Positions 28,179 through 64,000 of a stretch of 64,000 nucleotides of DNA are shown piece by piece (position 1 is the first letter of the stretch; every line of letters begins with the position of its first letter). The notes below the pieces were generated by a model that was not told the origin of the DNA, did no database searches, and saw only the letters and a list, made by a program, of their open reading frames with translations. Position numbers and translations under genes: made by a program. The DNA is from Escherichia phage JN01. The stretch lies in sequence record MN882542; one strand, written 5' to 3'.

Positions 28179-28760
28179 TCAAGAGTATTTTTTAGGCAGT
28201 AATGCACTACGCTTGTTACTCTCTTCACTCAATAGTGCGATAAATTCATCACCTTTCCCTTTCCACGGACTGAATGTAGGGATGTGCTCTCTGATAGCCT
28301 CAATCACTGTTTTCAGGGCATTGTTCTTTAACCACCAATCAGACACTGCCGAAGCTACAATGTAGTAAGCACCATCATCTGTGAAGATTGGCTCAGAGAT
28401 ACATGGTGAAATCATAGTGGTAATGATAGAACCATTATTCATGTAGTATGTTCTTTTTTCAACCTTATCAAGAAGCTTATGAAGGTCTGCAAAGAGACTT
28501 ACCACCTCTTTATGGTCAATATCTTTTTCAAGGTTTGCCCTGTATTTCAATAGTGCAGCATCAACCTCTTTATCATTGAATTTGAAGTATTGGACTTCTT
28601 CATTCACACATACACTGATATTGTTGGTGTTTATCGTCAATTTGCACAGTTTGACTGGAGAGTTGATGTTGGTCTGGAAAAGTGCTACACAGCCTTCTAC
28701 ATTCCCGAAATGCTTGACTAGTGTAACTTCTGGTTGGATGTGCTCATGCTCTTCTGACAT
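28179..28760 (-). CDS. hypothetical protein
   Basis: 193 aa ORF. Confidence 0.5.
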   Translation of the reverse strand: MSEEHEHIQPEVTLVKHFGNVEGCVALFQTNINSPVKLCKLTINTNNISVCVNEEVQYFKFNDKEVDAALLKYRANLEKDIDHKEVVSLFADLHKLLDKVEKRTYYMNNGSIITTMISPCISEPIFTDDGAYYIVASAVSDWWLKNNALKTVIEAIREHIPTFSPWKGKGDEFIALLSEESNKRSALLPKKYS

Positions 28761-33653: not shown

Positions 33654-35069
33654 ATGAGCGAGTTATTTAAACATGCGCACCTTCATGCAGGTCGAACTGA
33701 AAATGGTGCTGTAAACCATACTTCATCAATGTCTGCTCTGGTAGACTTCTACAAATCCGCTGGCTCAAGCCGTAGCAATGTAGAAATCTTACCAGACCTG
33801 TTCTACAAAGCTTTGCGTGAGGATGTTGATGTTGCAGTTCGTATTTTACTGCATATGCGAGATGTACGAGAAGGTATGGGTGAGCGTAAAGCCTTCCGAA
33901 CTGTTTTATTTCAAGCGATTGAAGATAAAGTTTTAGAACCTACACAGGTTCTTCGCATTATGGATAAGATTGCAGAACTTGGTCGTTTTGATGACTTCAA
34001 AATCTTCGTAGGTACTCGTTTTGAGACAGATGCCTTCAAACATTTAGAAGCAGCATTACTAGACCCTGCAACAGCAGGTTTAGCAGCTAAGTGGTTACCA
34101 CGAGTAAAACCACGCCACAAACAGTTTGTAAAACGTTTCTGCAAGTTTGCAAACTTAAGTGAGAAGGAGTATCGCACACTGTTGTCTGCACTGTCTGATA
34201 CGGTTGAGCAAAAAATCTCTGCGAATGAGTTTGGCAAGATTGACTATAGTAAGATTCCTTCACTCGCTGCTGCACGTTACCAAAAGCTCTTTAACCGTAA
34301 AGATGGGGAACGTTACAAAGCTTACATCGAGTCACTCTCAAAAGGTGAGGCTAAGATTAACGCTGGTGCTGTTTACCCATACGATGTGATTAAATCTATC
34401 AAGTATGGTAATGCAGATGTAGCTAATGAGCAGTGGAAAGCACTACCAAACTGGATGGCAGAAGGTGAGAACATCTTGTGTATGACTGATGTTTCAAGCT
34501 CAATGTCTTGGGTGAATCTTGGTTCAATCACTGCCCTTGATATTGGTGTATCCCTTGCCTTGTATGTAGCAGAACGCAACACAGGTTGCTTTAAGAATGA
34601 GTTGATGGTTTATTCAACAAACCCTCATTTCATTGAACTGAGTGGTGATTTACAAAACCGTCATCGTCAAGTAATGCGTCATGTTGAATATGGTTCAACT
34701 AACTTACAAGCAGCTTTTGACCGTATTCTTGAAATAGGTAAGAGAAACAACTTGACTCAGAAAGATATGCCAAGTAAGCTTATTATCTTCTCTGATATGG
34801 AGTTTAATCAGGTTGATGGTGCAAATGGTCGTACAAACTTTGAAGCAATTCAGAGTAAGTACAAAAAAGCTGGATACGAAATGCCACAACTAGTATTCTG
34901 GTACTTAGCAAACCGTAATGGTACTTGCGAAGTATCTGTTAAGGATAATGGTGTAGCAATGGTATCAGGGTTCTCTCCAGCCACTTTAAAAGCTCTGCTT
35001 GGTGGTGAGAAGTTTGACCCAATCAGCGTAATGCTCAAAGCAGTAATGATTGACCGTTACATCTGGTAA
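33654..35069 (+). CDS. vWA-domain protein, candidate Ro60/Rsr-like (TROVE-vWA) RNA-binding protein
   Basis: 471 aa; C-terminal vWA with MIDAS DxSxS (LCMTDVSSSM) and downstream Thr/Asp positions; N-terminal 270 aa helical domain; sits just upstream of stem-closed Y-RNA-like elements. Confidence 0.5.
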   Translation: MSELFKHAHLHAGRTENGAVNHTSSMSALVDFYKSAGSSRSNVEILPDLFYKALREDVDVAVRILLHMRDVREGMGERKAFRTVLFQAIEDKVLEPTQVLRIMDKIAELGRFDDFKIFVGTRFETDAFKHLEAALLDPATAGLAAKWLPRVKPRHKQFVKRFCKFANLSEKEYRTLLSALSDTVEQKISANEFGKIDYSKIPSLAAARYQKLFNRKDGERYKAYIESLSKGEAKINAGAVYPYDVIKSIKYGNADVANEQWKALPNWMAEGENILCMTDVSSSMSWVNLGSITALDIGVSLALYVAERNTGCFKNELMVYSTNPHFIELSGDLQNRHRQVMRHVEYGSTNLQAAFDRILEIGKRNNLTQKDMPSKLIIFSDMEFNQVDGANGRTNFEAIQSKYKKAGYEMPQLVFWYLANRNGTCEVSVKDNGVAMVSGFSPATLKALLGGEKFDPISVMLKAVMIDRYIW

Positions 35070-35234: not shown

Positions 35235-35308
35235 CTCTGTTTAGCTCAGCTTGGTAGAGCGTTCCGTTTGGGGCGGTAAGGCCGGAGGTTCAAGTCCTCC
35301 AACAGAGA
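35235..35308 (+). tRNA. tRNA-Pro(TGG)
   Basis: Hand-folded cloverleaf, anticodon loop TTTGGGG, T-arm GGAGGTTCAAGTCCTCC, CCA encoded. Confidence 0.7.
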
Positions 35309-35318
35309 CCAAATTAAT

Positions 35319-35392
35319 GTTCCAGTAGACAAAATGGTAAAGTCACCACTCTTTCAAAGTGGATATTTGAGGGTTCAAATCCCTTCTGGAAT
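35319..35392 (+). tRNA. tRNA-Glu(TTC)
   Basis: Acceptor GTTCCAG/CTGGAAT, anticodon stem-loop CCACT-CTTTCAA-AGTGG, T-loop TTCAAAT, CCA encoded. Confidence 0.7.
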
Positions 35393-35403
35393 GCCAGTTT
35401 TGA

Positions 35404-35476
35404 CAGAAGACCAATTACAGCAAGTTTAATCTTATTCATCTGACACGAAATCGGACAAAGAAGAGATTTGGTCTGG
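35404..35476 (+). ncRNA. stem-closed structured element A (Y-RNA-like candidate)
   Basis: 5' arm CAGAAGACCAA pairs with 3' arm TTGGTCTGG; conserved ACAGCAA box after 5' arm. Confidence 0.35.
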
Positions 35477-35487
35477 TCATTAAGAAT

Positions 35488-35561
35488 TGCGGGTATAGAG
35501 AAAGGGCGTCTCACATGTCTCATTAGCATGGTATCGGCAGGTTCGACTCCTGCACCCGCCT
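35488..35561 (+). tRNA. tRNA-Met or Ile2 (CAT), slightly atypical acceptor/D junction
   Basis: Anticodon stem-loop CATGT-CTCATTA-GCATG, T-arm GCAGGTTCGACTCCTGC, CCA encoded; 1-72 pair mismatched. Confidence 0.55.
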
Positions 35562-35570
35562 CCAATTTTG

Positions 35571-35630
35571 CAGAAGACCGTATTCAGCAACAAACTACTT
35601 TTTGCGGATAAAAGAAAAAACACGGTCTGG
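35571..35630 (+). ncRNA. stem-closed structured element B (Y-RNA-like candidate)
   Basis: 5' arm CAGAAGACCGT pairs with 3' arm ACGGTCTGG; the two bases beside GACC covary relative to element A (AA/TT vs GT/AC). Confidence 0.35.
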
Positions 35631-35641
35631 CAATGTATTAA

Positions 35642-35715
35642 GGTTAGGAAGCACATAAGGTATGTGCGGTCGCCTGTTAAGCGAATGGCACAGGGTTCGA
35701 ATCCCTGACTAACCG
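35642..35715 (+). tRNA. tRNA-Asn(GTT)
   Basis: Acceptor GGTTAGG/ACTAACC, anticodon loop CTGTTAA, T-arm CAGGGTTCGAATCCCTG, CCA encoded. Confidence 0.65.
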
Positions 35716-35727
35716 CCAAATTTAAAT

Positions 35728-35812
35728 GTGTCGTTATCCCGTAGATGGTAGCGGTGGGGACTGTAAATCCCTTGTCATTGAGACTCGGTAGGTTCGACTC
35801 CTACACGGCACA
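35728..35812 (+). tRNA. tRNA-Tyr(GTA), class II
   Basis: Anticodon stem-loop GGGGA-CTGTAAA-TCCCT, long variable arm, T-arm GTAGGTTCGACTCCTAC, CCA encoded. Confidence 0.7.
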
Positions 35813-35821
35813 CCAAATAAA

Positions 35822-35895
35822 GGTTATGTAGTTTAACTGGTTAAAATACTCCCCTGTCACGGGAGATGATGAGGGTTCAAATCCCTTCGTAACCG
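35822..35895 (+). tRNA. tRNA-Asp(GTC)
   Basis: Acceptor GGTTATG/CGTAACC, anticodon stem-loop CTCCC-CTGTCAC-GGGAG, T-loop TTCAAAT, CCA encoded. Confidence 0.7.
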
Positions 35896-35984
35896 CCAAA
35901 TTATAATAAGTATTTCAAAATGCTGTTTGAGAGGGCTATTTAGCCTCTCCCTTAAAGAGTTCTTACGAGTATTCTTTAAAGGAG

Positions 35985-36061
35985 CAGAAGACCAAATTCA
36001 GCAAGTACGTATGATATTTTCAAGCCAATTTAATTTTGAAAAAATTTAAAACTTGGTCTGG
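35985..36061 (+). ncRNA. stem-closed structured element C (Y-RNA-like candidate)
   Basis: 5' arm CAGAAGACCAA, ATTCAGCAA box, 3' arm TTGGTCTGG. Confidence 0.35.
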
Positions 36062-36074
36062 CTCAACAAATTTA

Positions 36075-36206
36075 CAGAAGACCGTTTACAGCAAAACTTA
36101 AACAATCTATTTCTCCGGTAAAGAAAAGGCGAAGGTTCGATTCCTTCACTCGGCAGGTGTCGAGTTGGTGTAATGGTAGCACTTAAGATGATAAACAACG
36201 GTCTGG
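36075..36206 (+). ncRNA. stem-closed element D with embedded tRNA-like module (YrlA-like Y RNA candidate)
   Basis: Arms CAGAAGACCGTT / AACGGTCTGG enclose hairpin TTTCT-CCGGTAA-AGAAA, T-arm GAAGGTTCGATTCCTTC, capped helix ACTCGGC-AGGT-GTCGAGT and D-arm GTGTAATGGTAGCAC. Confidence 0.45.
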
Positions 36207-36216
36207 TAATTATCTT

Positions 36217-36354
36217 TGTAGATAAGTTATTAAGCTTACCTGTGAGTATGCGACCACAAAGGGTGAAAGGGTAAATTCTAGATTTAAACCCAACAATGCA
36301 CATCGCTACAGACCTTAAGCAAGTCTGGGTAGCTTATCTACAAAGATAATTTAA
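36217..36354 (+). ncRNA. structured element E: 21 bp inverted repeat pair around a CAGACC...GGTCTG hairpin
   Basis: TTATCTTTGTAGATAA at 36221 and its reverse complement TTATCTACAAAGATAA at 36335; inner hairpin CAGACCTTAAGCAAGTCTGG. Confidence 0.3.
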
Positions 36355-36355
36355 T

Positions 36356-36428
36356 GGAAGTGTAGCAGAATGGTGATGCGGCAGACTTTTAATCTGACAG
36401 GCGATGGGTTCGAATCCCTCCACTTCTA
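36356..36428 (+). tRNA. tRNA-Lys(TTT)
   Basis: Acceptor GGAAGTG/CACTTCT, anticodon stem-loop CAGA-CTTTTAA-TCTG, T-loop TTCGAAT, CCA encoded; paralog of 38064..38135 with compensatory stem changes. Confidence 0.6.
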
Positions 36429-36435
36429 CCAATAT

Positions 36436-36509
36436 GGTTCAGTCGCAGATAAGGTAATGCAGGGGTTTCATAAGCCCTATGAATGTGGGTTCGATTCCCA
36501 TCTGAACCT
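36436..36509 (+). tRNA. tRNA-Met(CAT)
   Basis: Acceptor GGTTCAG/CTGAACC, anticodon stem-loop GGGGT-TTCATAA-GCCCT with three G-C pairs, T-arm GTGGGTTCGATTCCCAT, CCA encoded. Confidence 0.65.
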
Positions 36510-36513
36510 CCAA

Positions 36514-36586
36514 GCTGGTATAGTTAAGAAGGTTATAACACTCCCCTGATAAGGGAATATCGGTGGTTCGATTCCACCTACCAGTA
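36514..36586 (+). tRNA. tRNA-Ile(GAT)
   Basis: Acceptor GCTGGTA/TACCAGT, anticodon loop CTGATAA, T-arm GGTGGTTCGATTCCACC, CCA encoded. Confidence 0.7.
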
Positions 36587-36604
36587 CCAATTTCAATAAA
36601 GTTG

Positions 36605-36633
36605 TTGACATTGAGATGTGACTACTTTATAGT
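36605..36633 (+). promoter_or_regulatory. candidate sigma70-type promoter inside tRNA cluster
   Basis: TTGACA, 17 bp spacer, TATAGT. Confidence 0.5.
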
Positions 36634-36956
36634 AACTGAAAATAATTCAGCATATGTATAATTCAAACACCAATACATGAGCGTTAGACGTAACACAATG
36701 TGGGGAAATTTGTTGTACATATTCTGAATAGTTTTCGTTGCGTAGCGTCTATTTTGCAAATTTAAAATAAATGCAAACGACAATGTTTTTCTGGCAGTAG
36801 CTTGATAGGCTAAACACCAGTGAGGTCTTCCAATCCCTCATCAAAGAATTTGGCGTACTCGCCCACGGTATGATTAATAAGGTGGGCAACATTCTAAAGG
36901 GTATCCCTTATGGGGCTTGGCTTAAATGCAATGAGTACCCTTTAAAATGTTAATTA

Positions 36957-37035
36957 CGGGGCGTATCTCAGCGGTCTTCTAAACCGCCGTTAACCGAGTA
37001 AGTGGAGTATGCGGGTTCGAGTCCTGCCGCCTCGA
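36957..37035 (+). tRNA. atypical tRNA-like gene, Arg(TCT)-type anticodon loop, no recognisable D-arm
   Basis: Acceptor CGGGGCG/CGCCTCG, anticodon stem-loop GCGGT-CTTCTAA-ACCGC, T-arm GCGGGTTCGAGTCCTGC, CCA encoded; only 7 nt between acceptor and anticodon stem, 23 nt variable region. Confidence 0.4.
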
Positions 37036-37053
37036 CCAATTTTGGATGAAATC

Positions 37054-37401
37054 ATGAAAACTTGTATTAGGTGCAAACTTAGCAAGGATGAAAGTGATTT
37101 CTACATGAAAGATGGTAGGAGAACTCATTCATACTGTAAAAAGTGTGTTAATGAGCAAACCATAGAAAGACAAAGAGCACTTAAACTTTCAGCTATTGAG
37201 TACAAAGGTGGAGTTTGTCATGATTGTGGTAAAAGGTATCATCCAGCAGTGTATGACTTCCATCATTTGAATCCTTCAGAGAAAGATTTTAACATTGGTC
37301 ATAGAAAAAGTCTTAAGTTCTCTCAGGAGCTAAAGGACGAACTTGACAAATGTGTTTTGCTATGTTCAAATTGCCATAGGGTAAGACATGCAAAGTATTA
37401 G
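37054..37401 (+). CDS. HNH endonuclease (homing-endonuclease-like) inside the tRNA cluster
   Basis: CxxC...CxxC zinc pairs with HNH core DFHHLNPSEKDFNIGH...CSNCHRVRH; ORF-track start 37009 falls in the tRNA-like T-arm, ATG at 37054 preferred. Confidence 0.75.
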   Translation: MKTCIRCKLSKDESDFYMKDGRRTHSYCKKCVNEQTIERQRALKLSAIEYKGGVCHDCGKRYHPAVYDFHHLNPSEKDFNIGHRKSLKFSQELKDELDKCVLLCSNCHRVRHAKY

Positions 37402-37538
37402 TTAGCAGATTGCTTAGACGACCTTATCGGGTCTCCGTGTAAGGAGGTGGTCTGTATCTCATGTTTTCCAGAACATGTAAATAATCTGAGAAGGGGCTTT
37501 ACAGTGTTGTGAGAATACGGTAAGCTTCGAATTATAGT

Positions 37539-37618
37539 GTGGGACGATGTTAAGACTCTAAGGCATGAGCAACGGCCTCCAAAACCGTTTCAAAGTGGTT
37601 CAACTCCTCCGTCCCATG
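37539..37618 (+). tRNA. atypical tRNA-like gene, Trp(CCA)-type anticodon loop, oversized D region and weak T-stem
   Basis: Acceptor GTGGGAC/GTCCCAT, anticodon loop CTCCAAA in stem ACGG/CCGT, T-loop TTCAACT, CCA encoded; may be degenerate. Confidence 0.35.
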
Positions 37619-37633
37619 CCAAAGTCTTATTAG

Positions 37634-37721
37634 GGGTAGGTAGCGGCTAATGGTAGCCAAACTGTCTTGAAAACAGTTGCCACTGTAGAGATACGGTGAG
37701 GGTTCGACTCCTTTACTTACC
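37634..37721 (+). tRNA. tRNA-Ser(TGA), class II
   Basis: Anticodon stem-loop ACTGT-CTTGAAA-ACAGT, long variable arm, T-arm GAGGGTTCGACTCCTTT. Confidence 0.7.
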
Positions 37722-37879
37722 GCCTAATAAGATTTAAAGCCAAGCTTCATTCGGATGTTGCTTTGGTATCCCTCGTGTATTGTCGTACACACTGATAAAG
37801 CACCTAGTAGGTGTCACGGAGAAGAGATAATATCAAGCTCTCCAAAGGTTCTAGTCACCGGATTAAACAAGACTATGCA

Positions 37880-37908
37880 AAGACCTATTTAGGTCTTTTT
37901 AGAGGGCT
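37880..37908 (+). terminator. hairpin with T-tract inside tRNA cluster
   Basis: AAGACCTA-ttt-AGGTCTT followed by TTTAGAG; repeats the AGACC/GGTCT arm motif. Confidence 0.4.
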
Positions 37909-37979
37909 TCTAAGGTTATTACAGCTTGTTGTGGAACCTTGTTGCTTAGGTTCTTAGAAGTTCTCTAAAAAGATTTAAT

Positions 37980-38053
37980 GCACCTATAGCCCAACTGGTA
38001 GAGGCAGCAGACTTAGAATCTGCTCAGTGTGAGTTCGAATCTCTCTAGGTGTA
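37980..38053 (+). tRNA. tRNA with anticodon TAG (Leu by anticodon), short variable arm
   Basis: Anticodon stem-loop GCAGA-CTTAGAA-TCTGC, 3 bp D-stem, 5 nt variable loop, discriminator A, CCA encoded. Confidence 0.5.
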
Positions 38054-38063
38054 CCAAATTAAT

Positions 38064-38135
38064 GCAGGTGTAGCAAAATGGTTATGCGGCTGACTCTTAA
38101 TCAGTAAGACGATGGGTTCAATTCCCTCCACCTGT
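38064..38135 (+). tRNA. tRNA-Lys(CTT)
   Basis: Anticodon stem-loop CTGA-CTCTTAA-TCAG, T-loop TTCAATT, CCA encoded. Confidence 0.6.
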
Positions 38136-38144
38136 ACCAAACAT

Positions 38145-38218
38145 TGGGGATGTAGTTTACATGGTTAAAACATAAGTTTTGCAAACTTAAGTACAGGGTT
38201 CAATTCCCTGCTTCTCCA
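38145..38218 (+). tRNA. tRNA-Ala(TGC)
   Basis: D-arm GTTT...AAAC, anticodon stem-loop TAAGT-TTTGCAA-ACTTA, T-arm CAGGGTTCAATTCCCTG, CCA encoded. Confidence 0.7.
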
Positions 38219-38226
38219 CCAATTAG

Positions 38227-38298
38227 TGCATCCATAGTTTAAACGGGAAAATTACAGTCTTCCAAACTGAGGTTGAGGGTTCGATTCCCTCTGGATGC
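38227..38298 (+). tRNA. tRNA-Gly(TCC)
   Basis: Acceptor GCATCCA/TGGATGC, anticodon loop CTTCCAA, T-arm GAGGGTTCGATTCCCTC, CCA encoded. Confidence 0.7.
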
Positions 38299-38308
38299 TC
38301 CAAATTAA

Positions 38309-38382
38309 TGCTCCTATCGTATAATTGGCTATTACGGTTGCCTTGTAAGCAACTTATCAGGGTTCGAATCCTTGTGGGAGCA
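38309..38382 (+). tRNA. tRNA-Thr(TGT)
   Basis: Anticodon stem-loop GTTGC-CTTGTAA-GCAAC, T-arm CAGGGTTCGAATCCTTG, CCA encoded. Confidence 0.7.
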
Positions 38383-38388
38383 CCAATT

Positions 38389-38476
38389 CAGAGGTCAAGT
38401 GAAAGACCGCTGGTGTCAACTGAAGACCGTAACAAATTCCACGGAGTTGAGTTAGCGGCACAACTTCAGACCTCTT
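38389..38476 (+). ncRNA. structured element F (multi-stem, GAAGACCGT motif)
   Basis: Outer stem CAGAGGTC/GACCTCT; nested pairs CCGCT/AGCGG, CAACT/AGTTG, CCGT/ACGG; contains CTGAAGACCGTAAC related to elements A-D. Confidence 0.35.
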
Positions 38477-38480
38477 TCAT

Positions 38481-38552
38481 ACTCGCTTAGTTTATATGGT
38501 AAAACATCACCCTTACAAGATGGAGAAAAAGGTTCAAGTCCTTTAGTGAGTA
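38481..38552 (+). tRNA. tRNA-Val(TAC)
   Basis: Acceptor ACTCGCT/AGTGAGT, D-arm GTTT...AAAC, anticodon loop CTTACAA (one stem mismatch), T-arm AAAGGTTCAAGTCCTTT, CCA encoded. Confidence 0.55.
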
Positions 38553-38556
38553 CCAT

Positions 38557-38631
38557 GTTCCAGTATCCCAATTGGCAGAGGATGCAAGCTCAAACCTTGT
38601 ACTAGTGACGGTTCGAATCCGTCTTGGAACA
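38557..38631 (+). tRNA. tRNA with anticodon CAA (Leu by anticodon), short variable arm
   Basis: Anticodon stem-loop GCAAG-CTCAAAC-CTTGT, T-arm GACGGTTCGAATCCGTC, discriminator A, CCA encoded. Confidence 0.5.
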
Positions 38632-38639
38632 CCAATTTT

Positions 38640-38712
38640 GCAGGATTAGTTCAAATGGATAGAGCAACAGTCTACGAAGCTGTTAATAGGGGTTCGAATC
38701 CCTTATCCTGCG
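38640..38712 (+). tRNA. tRNA-Arg(ACG)
   Basis: Acceptor GCAGGAT/ATCCTGC, anticodon stem-loop ACAGT-CTACGAA-GCTGT, T-loop TTCGAAT, CCA encoded. Confidence 0.7.
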
Positions 38713-38733
38713 CCAGATAAGTAAGAGTGATTT

Positions 38734-38976
38734 ATGCAAACATTAATCGTCGTTGAACATGAAAATTCCAATAGCATTGAGTTTGTAAGGGTTCCCACTA
38801 TAGATACCCACATTTTCTTGAAAGTAGGCTGGGAATGTGACCCAATAAGAGTAGAAAAATTTATTGGTCATTACTTTGGTGGAAGACAACTTAAAAGTGT
38901 TAATTTTGAGACAATGTTACCAGAAAACTCAGAAACAAATAATAATGTTTACCTCCTTACAAGGATTAGACAATGA
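38734..38976 (+). CDS. hypothetical protein
   Basis: 80 aa ORF within tRNA cluster, weak RBS. Confidence 0.35.
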   Translation: MQTLIVVEHENSNSIEFVRVPTIDTHIFLKVGWECDPIRVEKFIGHYFGGRQLKSVNFETMLPENSETNNNVYLLTRIRQ

Positions 38977-39530
38977 GATATTTGAAGTATGTTTCATGGA
39001 TTTTCTTAGCTTTGCTAGAGCCATTTGCAGCAATCTTAGCAGTCATCTTAGCACCTTTTGTAGTTCTATTCTACAGTGAGAAGAGAGGACACTTACCTTT
39101 CGGCTTCAGATGGATGGAAACATATGACAACCCAATTGATGGTGATAAAGGTCATGTCGAACGATGGGCTAAGATTAGAAAGATTGGTAAGCTTGGTATC
39201 TATATGCAGAGAGTTGGTTGGCTCTGGAGAAACAAAGCTTATAACTTCTCTTACCATGTGTTAGGAAGAGATGTAAAAGATGTTACTAAGTGGAAAGGTA
39301 ATATCAATGTAAGTTCTAACCCTGAAGATAATCAGACAGGTTATCTCCTAATGTGGAACAGTAATGCTTGGGGATTATTCGCTTTTATCCCATCAATTAA
39401 ACTCTTTGGTAAGCAATTCTACTGGAGAATTTATGTTGGATGGAAACTTAAAAGTGTTGTTCCAAAAGAAAGAGCATTCTCAAGGGAAAGAGTTATGTTG
39501 GCATTCTTTATTCATCCACTGAGAAAGTAA
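38973..39530 (+). CDS. hypothetical membrane protein
   Basis: 185 aa; hydrophobic N-terminus (WIFLALLEPFAAILAVILAPFVVLF), Trp-rich. Confidence 0.45.
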   Translation: MRYLKYVSWIFLALLEPFAAILAVILAPFVVLFYSEKRGHLPFGFRWMETYDNPIDGDKGHVERWAKIRKIGKLGIYMQRVGWLWRNKAYNFSYHVLGRDVKDVTKWKGNINVSSNPEDNQTGYLLMWNSNAWGLFAFIPSIKLFGKQFYWRIYVGWKLKSVVPKERAFSRERVMLAFFIHPLRK

Positions 39531-39538
39531 AGATTTAA

Positions 39539-39611
39539 AGGGGATTAGTTTACAAGGTTAAAACCTCGGTCTTTGAAATCGAAGAAGTTGGTTCAATTCC
39601 AACATCCCCCG
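39539..39611 (+). tRNA. tRNA-Gln(TTG)
   Basis: Anticodon stem-loop TCGGT-CTTTGAA-ATCGA, T-arm GTTGGTTCAATTCCAAC, CCA encoded; 1-72 pair mismatched. Confidence 0.6.
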
Positions 39612-39616
39612 CCAAT

Positions 39617-39692
39617 GCTCCATTACTCCAATTGGCAGAGAGGCCAGACTTAAAATCTGTGTTATGTATCGGTTCGAATCCGATATGGAGTA
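39617..39692 (+). tRNA. tRNA with anticodon TAA (Leu by anticodon), short variable arm
   Basis: Anticodon loop CTTAAAA, T-arm ATCGGTTCGAATCCGAT, discriminator A, CCA encoded. Confidence 0.5.
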
Positions 39693-39700
39693 CCAAATTT

Positions 39701-39773
39701 AGCGGTATAGCATAACTGGTAATGCAGCAGTCTCTGAAGCTGTCTTATTAAGGTTCAAATCCTTATGCCGCTG
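39701..39773 (+). tRNA. tRNA-Gln(CTG)
   Basis: D-arm GCAT...ATGC, anticodon stem-loop GCAGT-CTCTGAA-GCTGT, T-arm TAAGGTTCAAATCCTTA, CCA encoded. Confidence 0.55.
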
Positions 39774-39807
39774 CCACTTCTAAGGATTCTTACGAGAGCC
39801 CTTAAAT

Positions 39808-39880
39808 GTGGCCTTATCATAAATGGTAATGACCCATGCTGTGAACATGGTCTATACGGGTTCAAATCCCGTAGGTCACC
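39808..39880 (+). tRNA. tRNA-His(GTG)
   Basis: Anticodon stem-loop CCATG-CTGTGAA-CATGG, T-arm ACGGGTTCAAATCCCGT, CCA encoded. Confidence 0.7.
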
Positions 39881-39888
39881 CCAATTTA

Positions 39889-39963
39889 TAGTCCAAGTAG
39901 CTTATATGGTTAAAGCGCGTGTCTGAAAAACATGAGAAGAGGGTTCAAATCCCACTGGACTAC
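39889..39963 (+). tRNA. tRNA-Phe(GAA), irregular acceptor/D junction
   Basis: D-arm GCTT...AAGC, anticodon stem-loop CGTGT-CTGAAAA-ACATG, T-loop TTCAAAT; acceptor register ambiguous. Confidence 0.5.
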
Positions 39964-39981
39964 CAATTTCAAAGGTGCTTA

Positions 39982-40716
39982 ATGAAAGAGATGACAGAAC
40001 AAGGTAAGGAGATTTTTAGTCTCTTAAAAACCGGTAGAGGGTTTTCTAATCCCCTTATTACTGGTGCAGCAGTTCTCGGTGGAACCGTAGCTGCCTCTAC
40101 ATCACTTGTAAGCTCTATTAGCTCTGTAGCAGACCCTACAATAAAGGATAAACTTGTTGCTGCTGGACTTACAACAGTTCTGCTTAATAGCTTTACAACG
40201 AGTCTGACAAGCACTACATCAACTACTAAGACACTGACAGATTACGGTCAAAAGTCCATTGATGAGTTTTCATCACGTATGCAGGTAGCAAAAGGGTATT
40301 CCAATGTTATGGGTGCAGCAGGAGAGCAAGTTGGTTGTACACCATTTAGTGGTATTATGGGTGTTGCTACAGAGTACGGTCAAAAAGCTATTGACACAAT
40401 TAACAGTACACTAGACGGTGTTAATGATGTATTAAGTGACTTACAAGATGCTATTGATAAAGGTCTTGATACTGTTTCTGATTTAGCTAACCAAGCTGTT
40501 AGCAAGATTAATGAAGGTATCTCGAAGATTACAGCTTATGCAGATGAAGTTGTGCAGATGATTGAAGAAGAAGCTGCCCTTATTGCAGAGTACCTTAAAA
40601 CGAATATCAATGGGTTCTTAGCAGGTATCTTACCAGACTGGTTTGATGATGCTTGTAAAACTGGTGTAATTGATACTATTGCAACACCAGAAATGAAGAA
40701 CGCATTACAGAAATAA
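39982..40716 (+). CDS. hypothetical protein (Ser/Thr-rich central region)
   Basis: ORF-track start 39919 is GTG inside the tRNA; ATG 39982 preceded by AAAGGTGCTTA. Confidence 0.5.
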   Translation: MKEMTEQGKEIFSLLKTGRGFSNPLITGAAVLGGTVAASTSLVSSISSVADPTIKDKLVAAGLTTVLLNSFTTSLTSTTSTTKTLTDYGQKSIDEFSSRMQVAKGYSNVMGAAGEQVGCTPFSGIMGVATEYGQKAIDTINSTLDGVNDVLSDLQDAIDKGLDTVSDLANQAVSKINEGISKITAYADEVVQMIEEEAALIAEYLKTNINGFLAGILPDWFDDACKTGVIDTIATPEMKNALQK

Positions 40717-40717
40717 T

Positions 40718-40807
40718 GGAAGATTAACCCTAAAAGGTAAGGGAGCAGTTTGCTAAACTGCCAGTAGCTGAGAAATCGGTGTACCAGTTCAAGTCTGGTA
40801 TCTTCCT
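40718..40807 (+). tRNA. tRNA-Ser(GCT), class II
   Basis: Acceptor GGAAGAT/ATCTTCC, anticodon stem-loop GCAGT-TTGCTAA-ACTGC, long variable arm, T-arm ACCAGTTCAAGTCTGGT, CCA encoded. Confidence 0.7.
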
Positions 40808-40814
40808 CCAATTT

Positions 40815-40887
40815 GAATCCGTGACAGAAATGGCTATGTACCTGTCTGCAAAACAGGTTTATAAGGGTTCGAGTCCCTTCGGATTCT
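40815..40887 (+). tRNA. tRNA-Cys(GCA)
   Basis: Acceptor GAATCCG/CGGATTC, anticodon stem-loop CCTGT-CTGCAAA-ACAGG, T-arm AAGGGTTCGAGTCCCTT, CCA encoded. Confidence 0.7.
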
Positions 40888-40924
40888 CCAAGTTATTTTA
40901 CTCTCTCTCTCAATTAAAATAATA

Positions 40925-59449: not shown

Positions 59450-60304
59450 ATGTTTGAAAAGATTGATAGTGTTTATTACAAAACACTTGATGAACGAACT
59501 GTAACACAGTTTAAAGATAAGTTTATCTACACAAGCATCTTGAAAGCAATCACTGATGAGTTACAAACACTAGAGGATGTTTGCTGGCAGATGCACACAG
59601 AGAGAAATATCAGGACATCAGTAGGTCAACAACTTGATAATATTGGCTCACTGATTAAAGTTCCTAGACCTTTAGGTGCTGATGATGAAACATATAGAGC
59701 TATGCTTTATATCCAAATCTTCCTAAGACGCTCTGACACTACTCCAACATTCTTGCAAAAAGCAATTATGACACTGTATGGTGCAACTTTCTCTCAGATT
59801 TTTGAGCATATTACTCCTAAGACTGGTGGTATCGTTATCCGTATCAACACTAGGAAAAGCGTTCTAGATGCTGCATATACACTGTCAAAGATTTCTGCAA
59901 CAACTACTGGTTCTGCTGTTATCTTAAGAGATGTTACTTTAAAAGGAACTGCTTGGACACCTGTAGAGGTTGCTGATTCAGCACTTGCTATTGTTGATGA
60001 TAAAGAGAACTGGTTCGTAACTGATGCTAACAGGGGTCTTGTTACAAATAACACTGGTGGCTCTCTGGAGTCCAACCTAGTAGGGAGTCTTGCAGATGCT
60101 GGTGTTATTGATGGTTACTTTAAGGTTGACAGAACAGCAAACTCACAGAGTGATGATTACATGACTGTAGATAGGTCTAATAATAGTGGATATTTCATCG
60201 TTGGTAAAGAAGCTGTTGCAGGTGGTGCATACGGAATCATGGCTGAGGTTGCACAAATTGTCAAAGGCAGAAAAGATAAATCACAACAAGAAGGAAATTC
60301 TTAA
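59450..60304 (+). CDS. baseplate/tail protein I-like (by position)
   Basis: 284 aa ORF. Confidence 0.4.
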
Positions 60305-60606
60305 TGGCAGTTTTAAATTGGTCTACAAATGAAGTGGATACTGATGGTAATCAGTTAAAAGTTTTACCACCACCGGAAATTCAAGAGACAGGTCTTTTAA
60401 AGGGTGAGCCTATGGGTAGACAGTGGTTCAACTATATTATCAACTACCTGCTGAATAAAGTAAACGGCACTGTTGGGGAAGTTCGCTCATATGCAACTGA
60501 GCAACCAGATTTAGTGGCTAATGGCTGGAATCTAATTAAGTCTGAGACAGGGACTGCATCAACAAGCACAAGAAACCTTTACACATATGAATATGTAGGA
60601 GCTTAA
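60304..60606 (+). CDS. hypothetical tail protein
   Basis: 100 aa ORF. Confidence 0.4.
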
Positions 60607-60608
60607 TA

Positions 60609-61784
60609 ATGGCAGTAGGTGAAATTCAAATTAGTGCCTTGCCACAAGCGGCCTTACCAATTGATTTGAGTGATATCTTCCATCTTAAGCAAGGTGTTGA
60701 GGATAAAAGATGTACGCTTGAACAGTTGTTAGCACCTCACACATCTTTGAGGAATAACCCTCATGGTGTAACTAAATCGCAAGTTGGTCTTGATAATGTT
60801 ATTAACTCACTCCAATTGGTCGCAGCTAATAACTTGTCAGACATTGTAGATGTTGCTGAGGCAAGAGCAAATCTACAGATTATGTCGTCAGATGAAGTGA
60901 GCAGTTTAATTCAGAGACATATCGACGACAAAAGTAACCCACACAACACAACGAAAGCACAGGTTGGTTTAAGTAATGTTCAGAACTGGACAACATCCAA
61001 CCTGTACAATGAAGATGCTGATAAATATGCTACCGCGAGAGCAGTGAATAATCTATACAAAGCTATCCAAGCATCATATCCAGTGGGGACTATTCATCTG
61101 TCTGTTAACTCTGCTAACCCATCCACTTACTTGCTTTGTGGAGGTACTTGGGAGTTGGTTTCTAAAGGTAGGGCGCTTGTTGGTTATGATACAGAAGCTA
61201 GACCTGTTGGTTCAACGTTCGGTTCTCAGACTGTAGCATTAACAAATAATAATTTACCAGCACACACCCACTCTATCTATTTAACAGGTGGTGGTCACAC
61301 ACACTCTGCAAGCGTATCTATCTCTAGTTTTGATTATGGTTCAAAAAGTACATCAACTTTTGATTACGGTACAAAAACGACTAATAGTGCTGGTGCTCAC
61401 ACTCACACGTTTAGCGGCACGACAAGTAATGATGGTAACCATAACCATAGAGTACCACTGAGAGGTAATGATAGAAGTGGGGGGGATGCTATTACTGCAT
61501 CTGCTTATGCTGGGGTTAATAATAATACGTATACTGATTTAGCAGGTGCTCACACCCATAGCTTCTCAGGCACAACTGCATCATCTGGTGCTCATAACCA
61601 TACTGTTGCAATTGGTGCTCATAGCCACACTGTTAATATTGGTTCACACAGTCATACGGGTACTGTTACTGTCTCTAGCTCTGAACATACACACTCAGGA
61701 ACATCTGGTTCTGTTGGTGGTGGTCAAGCTTTCAGTGTTGAACAGCCATCTTTTGTACTATATGTATGGCAGAGAACAGCTTAA
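60609..61784 (+). CDS. tail fiber protein with His-rich HxH repeats
   Basis: C-terminal half has repeated AHTHTFSGTTS, GAHTHSFSGTTASSGAHNHTVAIGAHSHTVNIGSHSHTGT motifs. Confidence 0.65.
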   Translation: MAVGEIQISALPQAALPIDLSDIFHLKQGVEDKRCTLEQLLAPHTSLRNNPHGVTKSQVGLDNVINSLQLVAANNLSDIVDVAEARANLQIMSSDEVSSLIQRHIDDKSNPHNTTKAQVGLSNVQNWTTSNLYNEDADKYATARAVNNLYKAIQASYPVGTIHLSVNSANPSTYLLCGGTWELVSKGRALVGYDTEARPVGSTFGSQTVALTNNNLPAHTHSIYLTGGGHTHSASVSISSFDYGSKSTSTFDYGTKTTNSAGAHTHTFSGTTSNDGNHNHRVPLRGNDRSGGDAITASAYAGVNNNTYTDLAGAHTHSFSGTTASSGAHNHTVAIGAHSHTVNIGSHSHTGTVTVSSSEHTHSGTSGSVGGGQAFSVEQPSFVLYVWQRTA

Positions 61785-61830
61785 TTTCTTTACAGGGGCT
61801 TTATAGCCCCTTTTAAGAGGAAAATTTATA

Positions 61831-64000
61831 ATGGCAGATTACAAATTGAGTCAATTAAACTCAATAGACACAATTCGTTCAGAAGACCTATTGCACATCA
61901 GAGTTAAGAAAAGACCTGAAATGTTGGGTGACGAAGACCGTAGAATGACCTATCAAGACTTCTTAGCTTCCTTCAAACTAGAAAGGTTTGTTCAGATTGC
62001 TGGGAGCACTATGATTGGGGATTTAGGTATTGTCAAGTTACTTTACGGTGGCAAGGCTGTATTTGACCCAACAGGCTCTTCTGAGATTACTATTGGGGAT
62101 GTTTTAAAGACTTTTAAACTTAACGCAAATGGTCTTAAACTCACTATTGCAGATGCTTCAAGGTCAGCAACTGTTTATCATACTTTGAATAAACCAAGCC
62201 CTAATGAACTTGGTATGAGAACTAATGAAGAGAATGATGCAAGATATGCAAGGCTTGCTGTTACAAACACATTCTCTGGAACTCAGAATATTCAAGGTGA
62301 TGCTAACTTACTTCGCCTTAGAAACCAAAATGCAAATAATGCACAATACATTGAAGGTGTAAACCTAGATGGTTCAGCTAGATGGTGGGTTGGTATTGGT
62401 AGTAATGGCTCTGACGAAGTAAAACTGTACAATAACAAATACAACTCAGTTTTGACTGTTGCAAGTAATATCTCTGTTAATAAGTCTTTAGCAATCACTG
62501 GACAAGTTCAACCTTCAGATTTCTCTAACTTAGATGCCAGATACTTTACTCAGACAGTTGCTAATCAGAGATTTGCACAGTTAGCTGCTAATAATAATTT
62601 TACTGGAACAAACACGTTTAGTAGAAACCTACTTATTATCAGTGATAGTGCTGCTTTAAGGTTGAAAAATGCAACATCTAGTTCCCTATTTATTCAGGGA
62701 GTTGACTCTCAGAATGCCAACAGATGGTATGTAGGGAATGGTGATAACACCGCCTCTGTGTTACTACACAACTATGTACATGGTTCAAATATTAGACTTG
62801 ATAATGGGTATATCTCAGTAAACCAAAATTTCAGAATCACTGGTCAAGTCCAACCTTCAGATTGGGCTAATATTGACTCTAGATATATTCCGGCAGCAAC
62901 TTTGAATACAATTGCAAGAACCAATGCAATGAATACTTTTAATGGTGTGCAGACAGTTGTTAGTGATAACGAAGGTCTAGTTATTAGAAACTCTACTCAG
63001 AGCAAGCCATTATATATTCGTGGTGTGGACACTGCTAATGTATCAAGATGGTGGATTGGTATTGGTGGTGCAGATAGTAATAACGTGACACTAAGTAACA
63101 GCTTTTCTGGGACTCAGATTTCTCTTGAGTCAACGTTAGTAAGTGTAAATAAGAATCTGTATATCAATGGTCAGGTTCAACCACAAGACTGGACTAATAT
63201 TGATGGGAGATACTATAACAAATCATCTGCTGATAGCAGATACCTGAGAATCAGAAGCACTGGATTTAACAATGTTAATGGGAATAAATGGGCTAAGATT
63301 GCTACTGTCACCATGCCACAAGGAACATCAACAGCAGTAATTGAACTATTTGGTGGTGCTGGTTTCAACTATGGTATATATAACCAAGCCTGTAAAACAG
63401 AAATTGTTCTTAGTACAGGGAATGGTAAACCAAAAGGCTTAAATGTTGTTGCATGGAAAAACGCACCGAATGATGTTGTAGGCCAAGTTGGTTATGTTAA
63501 TACCTCTGGTGATAATTATGACATTTATTGCTATGTTGGTGGTTATCAAAATGCTACGACAGCTAGGGTTCAGTCCTCAGATAATGCAACAGTACAACTG
63601 TTTGCATCCCCAGAGACATACGATAATGCTCCAGATGACTATGTTGCTGGGACAATTGCTTATTATTATACTAGTCTCTTGAAACCAACACCTACAGATA
63701 TTGGTGCATACACTAAAGCTGAAACTGACCAGAAAATTGCAGAAGCAATTAGTGACTCTACAGACCTGAATAAAATCTACCCAGTAGGTATTGTAACGTG
63801 GTTTAACAGTAATGTTAACCCTAATACAGCACTTCCTGGTCTAACTTGGACGTACCTGAATAATGGTGTTGGTAGAACTATTAGAATTGCAGCAGCAAAC
63901 GGTTCAGATGTTGCTACAACTGGTGGTTCAGATTCTGTAACGCTATCTGTTGGTAACTTACCTTCACACACACATAGTTTCTCTGCTACCACTTCATCAT
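61831..64000 (+). CDS. large tail fiber protein (3' end beyond window)
   Basis: Frame open from ATG 61831 to window end; three about 105 aa internal repeats (ITGQVQPSDxxNxDxRY); ends with LPSHTHSFSATTSS. Confidence 0.6.
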   Translation, partial: MADYKLSQLNSIDTIRSEDLLHIRVKKRPEMLGDEDRRMTYQDFLASFKLERFVQIAGSTMIGDLGIVKLLYGGKAVFDPTGSSEITIGDVLKTFKLNANGLKLTIADASRSATVYHTLNKPSPNELGMRTNEENDARYARLAVTNTFSGTQNIQGDANLLRLRNQNANNAQYIEGVNLDGSARWWVGIGSNGSDEVKLYNNKYNSVLTVASNISVNKSLAITGQVQPSDFSNLDARYFTQTVANQRFAQLAANNNFTGTNTFSRNLLIISDSAALRLKNATSSSLFIQGVDSQNANRWYVGNGDNTASVLLHNYVHGSNIRLDNGYISVNQNFRITGQVQPSDWANIDSRYIPAATLNTIARTNAMNTFNGVQTVVSDNEGLVIRNSTQSKPLYIRGVDTANVSRWWIGIGGADSNNVTLSNSFSGTQISLESTLVSVNKNLYINGQVQPQDWTNIDGRYYNKSSADSRYLRIRSTGFNNVNGNKWAKIATVTMPQGTSTAVIELFGGAGFNYGIYNQACKTEIVLSTGNGKPKGLNVVAWKNAPNDVVGQVGYVNTSGDNYDIYCYVGGYQNATTARVQSSDNATVQLFASPETYDNAPDDYVAGTIAYYYTSLLKPTPTDIGAYTKAETDQKIAEAISDSTDLNKIYPVGIVTWFNSNVNPNTALPGLTWTYLNNGVGRTIRIAAANGSDVATTGGSDSVTLSVGNLPSHTHSFSATTSS
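62270..63230 (+). repeat. intragenic tandem repeats (about 320 bp, 3 copies) in the large tail fiber gene
   Basis: Protein-level repeats around NGQVQP(S/Q)D(F/W)xNxDxRY recur about every 105 aa. Confidence 0.5.

Follow-up and report, generated by a model that had tools for sequence, protein, structure and literature searches.

The 64,000-nucleotide (nt) stretch of Escherichia phage JN01 analyzed here (sequence record MN882542; below, the window) carries three transfer RNA (tRNA) genes that have leucine anticodons and lack the long variable arm. These genes, for tRNA-Leu(UAG) (37980..38056), tRNA-Leu(CAA) (38557..38634), and tRNA-Leu(UAA) (39617..39695), all lie on the plus strand and are the sole Leu tRNAs called by ARAGORN in the tRNA array of the phage. 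We consider it likely that they are functional Leu isoacceptors of the class I tRNA-Leu family, also termed type I, which is marked by a short variable loop.

The genes, of 77, 78, and 79 nt, respectively, were called by ARAGORN and also by Infernal with the Rfam tRNA model (RF00005), where each exceeded the gathering score of 29 bits: Leu(UAG) at 37980-38053 (57.3 bits; E = 9e-11), Leu(CAA) at 38557-38631 (43.6 bits; E = 5e-7), and Leu(UAA) at 39617-39692 (47.5 bits; E = 5e-8). The Infernal ends are the same as those in an earlier note on this DNA, which stopped at position 73, before the encoded CCA. The ARAGORN cloverleaves of all three have a 7-bp acceptor stem, a 3-bp D stem, an 11-nt D loop, 7-nt anticodon and T loops, A73, and the encoded CCA. 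By standard numbering, Leu(UAG) has the variable loop UCAGU (5 nt), Leu(CAA) has ACUAGU (6 nt), and Leu(UAA) has GUUAUGU (7 nt); parsing of the brackets gives 6, 5, and 8 nt in the same order, as boundary bases are then assigned otherwise. No long extra arm was present in the ARAGORN cloverleaves of the three, and loops of 5 to 7 nt allow no stem. The variable region of more than 10 nt forming an extra stem-loop that marks class II tRNAs is thus absent, and the combination of a Leu anticodon with a variable loop of approximately 4 to 8 nt that marks class I is present in each. The earlier note had described Leu-anticodon tRNAs with loops of 5 to 7 nt, 3-bp D stems, and A73, and had allowed that folding might reveal a missed arm, or isotype models another amino acid with a different anticodon register. 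Its description was confirmed by ARAGORN and Infernal, and a hidden long arm or shifted register was ruled out, as these two programs and RNAalifold agree on a short-loop cloverleaf.

All three tRNAs carry U8 and A9. The first pair of the acceptor stem is G1-U72 in Leu(UAG) and Leu(UAA) and G1-C72 in Leu(CAA), and the anticodon loops are CUUAGAA, CUUAAAA, and CUCAAAC, respectively. Leu(UAG) has a T-stem mismatch (U50-U64), and Leu(UAA) has a C27-U43 mismatch in the anticodon stem. The same array encodes a tRNA-Tyr(GUA) (35728..35815, plus strand, 88 nt) and two tRNA-Ser genes, UGA (37635..37724, plus strand, 90 nt) and GCU (40718..40810, plus strand, 93 nt). These are class II, with variable regions of 15, 19, and 21 nt, which agrees with the claim that Ser and Tyr tRNAs of the array keep the long arm. 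They serve as internal controls: long arms are not generally lost in this phage.

The leucine identity elements were then compared with those known for Escherichia coli leucyl-tRNA synthetase (LeuRS). The enzyme depends on A73, the A15:U48 Levitt pair, G18G19, A20a, and interactions of the D and T loops, and requires neither the anticodon nor the long arm, an arm-less minimal tRNALeu still being charged (PMC9976931). The published identity set was complete in all three phage tRNAs (U8:A14, A15:U48, G18G19 in register, A20a, and A73). The bases U8, A14, and A15 and the U that ends the variable loop are present in each, and their three-dimensional pairing is predicted. The D loops CAACUGGUAGA, found in Leu(UAG), and CAAUUGGCAGA, found in Leu(CAA) and Leu(UAA), line up base for base with the E. 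coli loop AAAUUGGUAGA, with G18G19 in the same register and with A20a, and the T-loop elbow is intact. A composite signature was scored on 765 distinct ARAGORN tRNAs from phage loci; it calls for U8, A14, A15, A20a, and A73, for G18G19 in fixed positions, for a D arm of 17 nt, and for U at the end of the variable loop. It was found in 3 of 3 window Leu tRNAs, 22 of 34 class I Leu, 48 of 76 class II Leu, and 2 of 655 tRNAs of other isotypes, and is the strongest in silico argument that the three genes encode leucine acceptors. A73 itself was present in 31 of the 34 class I Leu tRNAs sampled.

Isotype models pointed mostly in the same direction. Published tRNAscan-SE 2.0 isotype scores for the related Shigella phage Sf14 place Leu at the top for its TAG (67.4), CAA (49.1), and TAA (60.2) tRNAs, which were classed as "consistent" with no mention of the variable arm (PMC12482277). 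The anticodon loops of Sf14 Leu(UAG) and Leu(CAA) are identical to those of the window tRNAs. Sequence-only isotype hidden Markov models (HMMs), made with a masked anticodon and no variable region, were used as a crude stand-in for the tRNAscan-SE models; the class II Leu profile took 20 of the 34 class I Leu tRNAs, and Leu was the best profile for Leu(UAA) (30.3 versus 23.1 bits). The three genes most likely encode true Leu isoacceptors whose type is known but under-appreciated.

Codon usage provides a plausible function. Shares of Leu codons were calculated for 68 long open reading frames (ORFs) of the window (15,479 codons; window G+C content, 38.7%) and for 35 annotated E. coli coding sequences (12,759 codons). 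The phage shares were 29.0% UUA, 26.0% CUU, 14.2% CUG, 12.6% UUG, 11.8% CUA, and 6.4% CUC, against 9.9, 7.2, 60.6, 9.1, 3.2, and 9.9%, respectively, in E. coli, so that UUA, CUA, and CUU were approximately threefold more common in phage ORFs. The anticodons UAA, CAA, and UAG cover UUA, UUG, and CUA, and with wobble at U34 further CUN codons are probably read. As the anticodons match Leu codons overused by the phage, an explanation by codon supply fits, and the same proposal was made for Leu[TTA] by the authors of the Felix O1 genome paper (PMC3185647). During infection, the three tRNAs would be transcribed with the rest of the array and then processed, with CCA already encoded. Host LeuRS, blind to the anticodon and the long arm, would charge them with leucine, and the charged tRNAs would raise the supply for UUA and UUG (UAA and CAA anticodons) and for CUA and probably other CUN codons (UAG anticodon). 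Leu would be the only long-arm isotype able to take the short form, because seryl-tRNA synthetase (SerRS) uses the arm as an identity element.

The three tRNAs were compared with the host isoacceptors leuW (UAG), leuX (CAA), and leuZ (UAA) of E. coli K-12, which are 85, 85, and 87 nt long with extra arms of 13 to 15 nt. Anticodons, the 3-bp D stem, A73, and the length and register of the D loop (NAAYYGGUAGA) are shared, whereas the host tRNAs differ, apart from their length and arm, in having G9, G12-C23, and A or G at position 13. The D arms are of equal length and in the same register, reading UG-GCG-AAAUUGGUAGA-CGC in the host and UA-GCC-CAACUGGUAGA-GGC (UAG), UA-UCC-CAAUUGGCAGA-GGA (CAA), and UA-CUC-CAAUUGGCAGA-GAG (UAA) in the phage. 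The anticodon loops also differ: C32 is present in all three phage tRNAs and U32 in the host isoacceptors, Leu(UAG) has A37-A38 where leuW has G37-U38, and C38 of Leu(CAA) replaces A38 of leuX and disrupts the host A36-A37-A38 motif. Under the rules for modification by TrmD and MiaA, the phage Leu(UAG) would be without 1-methylguanosine (m1G37) and Leu(CAA) without N6-isopentenyladenosine (i6A37). Because of A37 in Leu(UAG) and C38 in Leu(CAA), these host-type modifications are unlikely on the respective tRNAs. The changes in the anticodon loops resemble changes proposed elsewhere for evasion of anticodon nucleases.

Core identity separates the three genes further from those of the host. The window Leu tRNAs share 76 to 85% core identity with class I Leu tRNAs of genomes or other viruses, 67 to 71% with viral class II Leu, and 54 to 62% with E. 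coli Leu. The Leu(UAG) core is 85% identical to that of another class I Leu versus 62% to E. coli Leu, and the Leu(CAA) core is 84% identical to that of a class I Leu(CAA) found on a genome contig. No BLAST match to the window Leu tRNAs was found in 5,426 complete E. coli genomes. Recent derivation from a host tRNALeu by deletion was ruled out by this lack of a match together with the low core identity to leuW, leuX, and leuZ; the nearest cores are those of class I Leu. The short loop would instead be an inherited trait of a lineage whose core has been remodelled (A9, C12-G23, C13, and a loop reading NCAGU).

To place the three genes among those of other phages, a sensitive BLAST search of 50,697 phage records was made with the Leu(UAG) gene. 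Near full-length ungapped matches annotated as tRNA-Leu were identified in phages of Mycobacterium (76 records) and Streptomyces (46 records) and also of Pseudomonas, Enterococcus, Gordonia, Cronobacter, Klebsiella, Bacillus, and other hosts. Seven matching phages were fetched, and their tRNAs were called with ARAGORN. Class I Leu tRNAs were the only ones seen in Mycobacterium phage Koguma (CAG, GAG, and CAA, all short), Bacillus phage P59 (TAG and TAA), Cronobacter phage CR3 (CAA and TAG), and Pseudomonas phage PE09 (CAA and TAG). In Klebsiella phage FBKp34, Streptomyces phage Genie2, and Enterococcus phage Bop, a class I Leu(TAG) was accompanied by one class II or longer Leu tRNA, of 92 nt in FBKp34 and 82 nt in Genie2. 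Ser tRNAs, and Tyr tRNAs if present, were long armed in all seven. Confinement of the feature to Felix O1-like phages was ruled out by its presence in these other phages.

The frequency of short arms was estimated from 120 IMG/VR loci fetched by a generic D-loop/T-loop pattern, which also matches Thr, Pro, Asn, and other tRNAs; class frequencies were taken from ARAGORN calls and recomputed on Leu tRNAs outside the fetch pattern. Variable regions of 9 nt or less were found in 19 of 91 Leu, 0 of 34 Ser, and 2 of 18 Tyr tRNAs. Among Leu tRNAs that did not match the fetch pattern, 16 of 48 were short, and the count was 12 of 35 in loci with at least 10 tRNAs, giving a short-arm share of approximately 20 to 33% of the Leu tRNAs in this sample. 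The two short Tyr tRNAs have variable loops of 4 to 5 nt. Bacterial tyrosyl-tRNA synthetase normally meets a long-arm tRNATyr, and these two may be archaeal- or eukaryote-type Tyr tRNAs or mistyped genes.

Across viruses the short-arm Leu tRNAs share more than their loop. RNAalifold folded 24 phage class I Leu tRNAs into a cloverleaf with a 3-bp D stem and with compensatory double changes in 18 of 20 pairs. At position 9, A was found in 28 of 34 class I versus G in 66 of 76 class II viral Leu tRNAs; at position 12, C in 30 of 34 versus G in 65 of 76; and at position 13, C in 24 of 34 versus G or A in 71 of 76. The short loop mostly reads (N)CAGU. These patterns mark class I Leu as a coherent structural type and not a set of accidental deletions. 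The window tRNAs carry the family core (A9, C12-G23, C13, and a loop ending AGU or CAGU), with A9, C12, and C13 in all three; the Leu(UAA) loop GUUAUGU is the most divergent of the three from the class I pattern. The pair G1-U72 was rejected as a hallmark of class I, as 18 of 34 class I and 25 of 76 class II Leu tRNAs of viruses carry it, as do tRNAs of other isotypes.

Class I Leu genes were also found on bacterial chromosomes. A scan of GTDB (one genome per species) with the pattern CCCAAYTGGYAGAGG-N(25-45)-GTTCRAVTC gave at least 120 matches, with class I spacing in every match listed. ARAGORN called all of the 120 listed as tRNA-Leu of 74 to 78 nt, with the anticodons TAA (n = 55), CAA (n = 37), TAG (n = 14), CAG (n = 10), and GAG (n = 4). 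The hosts among the matches listed were overwhelmingly Actinomycetota (including Mycobacterium, Nocardia, Corynebacterium, Rhodococcus, Gordonia, Bifidobacterium, Arthrobacter, Amycolatopsis, and Frankia), with some Planctomycetota, Cyanobacteria, and others; no Enterobacterales were among the 120. A single tRNA was present in 95 of these 120 loci, and for the Nocardia Leu(UAA), six of seven other loci aligned with the query locus over flanks of 1.5 to 3.7 kb. As the gene is mostly a lone tRNA and Nocardia loci share their flanks, these are ordinary chromosomal genes, and a feature confined to phages was ruled out. Approximately 12 of the 120 listed bacterial loci, mainly of Actinomycetota, have 9 to 26 tRNAs within 8 kb and are possibly tRNA arrays of prophages or mobile elements. 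One listed match (L228) is on a contig that binning had assigned to a Nitrososphaerales archaeon; this contig may be viral or bacterial and mis-binned. In Mycobacterium tuberculosis, just "several" Leu tRNAs are described as having a long arm (Cai et al. 2020, PMC7450476). The premise that bacterial tRNA-Leu is normally class II thus stands for the enterobacterial host and fails as a general rule, since class I is a normal chromosomal form in many Actinomycetota and is frequent in phages of many phyla. The chromosomal genes resemble those of the window in the D arm (UAGCCCAAYUGGYAGAGGC), the short loop ending CAGU(G), A73, and the core identity given above; they differ in being single genes, with conserved flanks in Nocardia, that are G+C rich, mostly without encoded CCA, and from another host phylum.

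The window itself can be assigned from its sequence to Felixounavirus (Felix O1-like, Ounavirinae). Using megablast, 312 records of Felix O1-like phages were found to match the region, with the best match at least 90% identical in 298 of them; these are myoviruses of Escherichia, Salmonella, Shigella, and Citrobacter. Three tRNA-Leu genes are annotated in most matching records, and for Leu(UAA), 215 of 263 matching phage records show at least 99% identity. In the Felix O1 genome paper, the three Leu tRNA genes are given as 78, 78, and 79 nt with no remark on the arm, and no aminoacyl-tRNA synthetase is reported (PMC3185647). In Salmonella phage UAB_69 (OL656108.1), the His orthologue is annotated as a pseudo tRNA-Val; the isotypes that automated annotation assigns to these phage tRNAs are unstable. 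A Felix O1-like tRNA region (94.8% identity) is also present at 59897-62408 of the 147-kb record GU169904.1, "Staphylococcus phage SA1," which is probably a chimeric or contaminated assembly.

The tRNA array (35235..40890) contains 25 ARAGORN tRNAs, all on the plus strand, with small ORFs interspersed, and is flanked by a DUF2828/DUF7788 (Ro60-like) gene and the large terminase gene. A tRNA-like element at 36957-37035 (plus strand) scored 31.7 bits with the Rfam tRNA model, but ARAGORN did not call it. Its acceptor stem and T arm are good, CCA is encoded, and the anticodon loop (CUUCUAA) reads UCU (Arg, AGA); the element has 4 nt in place of a 15-nt D arm and an insert of approximately 20 nt after the anticodon stem. 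Its position is that of a normal tRNA-Arg-TCT in phage Sf14, and it would be a gene in decay or else an Arg tRNA of aberrant structure. The ORF directly upstream of the array (33654-35069, plus strand) encodes DUF2828, DUF7788, and weak VWA domains, which we take to be Ro60/TROVE-like, a reading that Pfam does not give. A DUF2828 protein is encoded immediately upstream of the tRNA array of phage FBKp34 and a "Ro-like RNA binding protein" within that of Genie2 (fetched phage loci L006, 5789-7228, and L008, 2637-4262). This repeated pairing of a Ro-like protein with phage tRNA arrays suggests quality control of tRNAs or small RNAs. No homologue of E. coli NrdA or NrdB was found in the window.

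Several observations weigh against reading the three genes as functional Leu isoacceptors. E. coli LeuRS (EcLeuRS) has been described as charging type II only and failed to leucylate the type I tRNALeu(CAA) of Streptomyces coelicolor, which has the loop ACAGC and is leucylated by its own LeuRS (Fan et al. 2019, PMC6614811). In the isotype HMMs, which are crude profiles, Leu(UAG) gave a near tie (Lys 36.2 versus Leu 34.4 bits), and Leu(CAA) scored weakly, with Tyr first. Leu(UAG) combines its U50-U64 mismatch with A37 for G37, and its orthologue in UAB_69 (28632-28706) is annotated as a pseudo "tRNA-OTHER." The high conservation of the genes is weak evidence of selection, since the genus is young. 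As to charging, the S. coelicolor tRNA has C48 and not U48, which may explain the failure of EcLeuRS, and S. coelicolor LeuRS does not use A73 (PMC6614811). Because the window tRNAs have both A15:U48 and A73, and because arm-less E. coli constructs are charged, it is likely that enterobacterial LeuRS charges them.

The failure of EcLeuRS on the Streptomyces tRNA would also fit nonfunctional relics, acquired horizontally, uncharged in Enterobacteria, and persisting because the genus is young. The mismatches in the Leu(UAG) T stem and the Leu(UAA) anticodon stem, the pseudogene annotation in one record, and the degenerate Arg(UCU)-like element in the same array could be read in the same way. The three genes have nonetheless kept all LeuRS determinants and the encoded CCA, they are the only Leu tRNAs of the phage and match its overused codons, and the divergent class I Leu tRNAs of two further lineages of enterobacterial phages, Cronobacter phage CR3 and Klebsiella phage FBKp34, show compensatory changes in their stems, all of which makes relics very unlikely. 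The earlier note had left two readings side by side, unusual phage Leu isoacceptors tuning the decoding of AT-rich codons and tRNAs of altered identity. The former is favored by the LeuRS set, the Sf14 scores, and the codon excess, while the latter gained no support. With altered identity, Leu codons would be read by tRNAs that another synthetase charges, resulting in deliberate or statistical recoding of UUA, UUG, and CUA. Loss of the arm does give these tRNAs the look of ordinary class I tRNAs; the placing of Leu(UAG) marginally with Lys and of Leu(CAA) weakly with Tyr points that way, as do the Sf14 runners-up for Leu-TAG, Ile2 (65.7) and Lys (63.4), which are close to Leu (PMC12482277). 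Yet tRNAscan-SE puts Leu first for all three in Sf14, every LeuRS determinant is present in a combination almost absent from non-Leu tRNAs, and the same architecture occurs as a chromosomal, often isolated Leu(UAA) or Leu(CAA) gene in Actinomycetota. The Lys, Ile, Tyr, and Phe synthetases need anticodon bases that are absent here (PMC9976931), the G3-U70 pair is missing from the three tRNAs, and determinants of no other synthetase are present. With competing host Leu tRNAs, recoding would yield a mixed proteome, and we regard altered identity as very unlikely.

Evasion of host defences could be the main selected function, the class I shape being a poor substrate for toxins or nucleases that read the long arm or the anticodon loop, so that Leu decoding outlasts the abortive-infection response; the tRNAs would still be charged with leucine. 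DUF1814 nucleotidyltransferase toxins prefer long-arm tRNAs, MenT3 modifying tRNASer and one long-arm tRNALeu (PMC7450476), and the abortive-infection toxin AbiEii has the same preference, judged by product size. The anticodon loops are unlike those of host isoacceptors at positions 32, 37, and 38 (PMC12482277), and only Leu, the single long-arm isotype with a synthetase that disregards the arm, has been converted, as the counts for short Ser and Tyr tRNAs given above indicate. Phage-specific selection is not needed, however, where chromosomal class I Leu is normal, as in many Actinomycetota; phages T4 and T5 manage with class II Leu, and many phages hold both types. To our knowledge, no toxin targets enterobacterial tRNALeu through the arm, and evasion as the main function seems unlikely. 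A wider proposal, rather speculative and with only a small chance of being right, is that the short-arm Leu tRNA is a mobile, broad-host "universal" Leu tRNA, exchanged and kept by phages of unrelated phyla and invisible to defences that recognize the long arm (AbiEii or MenT type) or the host anticodon loop. It would be chargeable in almost any host because bacterial LeuRS reads only A73 and the elbow. If true, phages could disguise Leu but no other class II isotype, and this would account for the finding that a fifth to a third of viral Leu tRNAs are short while Ser tRNAs are not and Tyr tRNAs rarely are.

Some of this was known already: the genes are annotated in GenBank and appear in two papers, and both mitochondria and S. 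coelicolor were known to have type I tRNALeu. A literature search found no description of short-arm Leu tRNAs in phages, neither of the class I nature of the Leu tRNAs of Felix O1-like and many other phages nor of the reliance of phages of class II-only hosts on such tRNAs. Textbooks and recent primary literature describe the tRNALeu of bacteria as class II and E. coli LeuRS as charging no other class; in contrast, a genus of coliphages and Salmonella phages with hundreds of sequenced genomes relies solely on class I Leu tRNAs. If enterobacterial LeuRS charges them, they would be a natural case showing that LeuRS can do without the long arm in vivo. The identity rules would be refined, the Streptomyces tRNA probably being set apart by C48 in place of U48, and compact natural Leu scaffolds would be at hand for engineering suppressor or orthogonal tRNAs. 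If they are not charged, hundreds of phage genomes hold conserved tRNA-like genes with another role. There is also a problem of annotation, as pipelines sometimes call class I Leu genes pseudo or "OTHER" and never record the structural class.

Among known systems, the type I tRNALeu(CAA) of S. coelicolor shares with the window tRNAs a Leu anticodon, a short loop (5 nt, ACAGC there and NCAGU here), and the company of long-arm Ser tRNAs, and its U8:A14 is important for leucylation by a bacterial LeuRS (PMC6614811). It differs in being chromosomal, in having C48, and in not being charged by E. coli LeuRS (PMC6614811), whereas the window tRNAs are phage borne, dependent on enterobacterial LeuRS, and equipped with A15:U48 and A73. 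Animal mitochondrial tRNALeu(UUR) and tRNALeu(CUN) are likewise class I, and the bacterial-type LeuRS that charges them uses A73 and A14 as determinants (PMC9976931), but they are organellar, structurally relaxed, and served by a dedicated synthetase. An engineered minimal E. coli tRNALeu without the arm was charged if A73 and the D/T-loop interactions were kept (Larkin et al. 2002, in PMC9976931); that molecule is artificial and derived from class II, whereas the window tRNAs have a natural class I core. The tRNALeu genes of phages T4 (UAA) and T5 (UAG) are, as here, encoded by coliphages for AT-rich codons, but they are class II, at 87 and 85 nt. Architecture, conserved core, and location in arrays with long Ser and Tyr tRNAs are shared with the class I Leu of other tRNA-rich phages (Bixzunavirus, Streptomyces BE-type phages, Herelleviridae, Vequintavirinae, Stephanstirmvirinae, and Otagovirus); some of these also retain class II Leu, whereas the window array has class I forms for each of its three Leu tRNAs.

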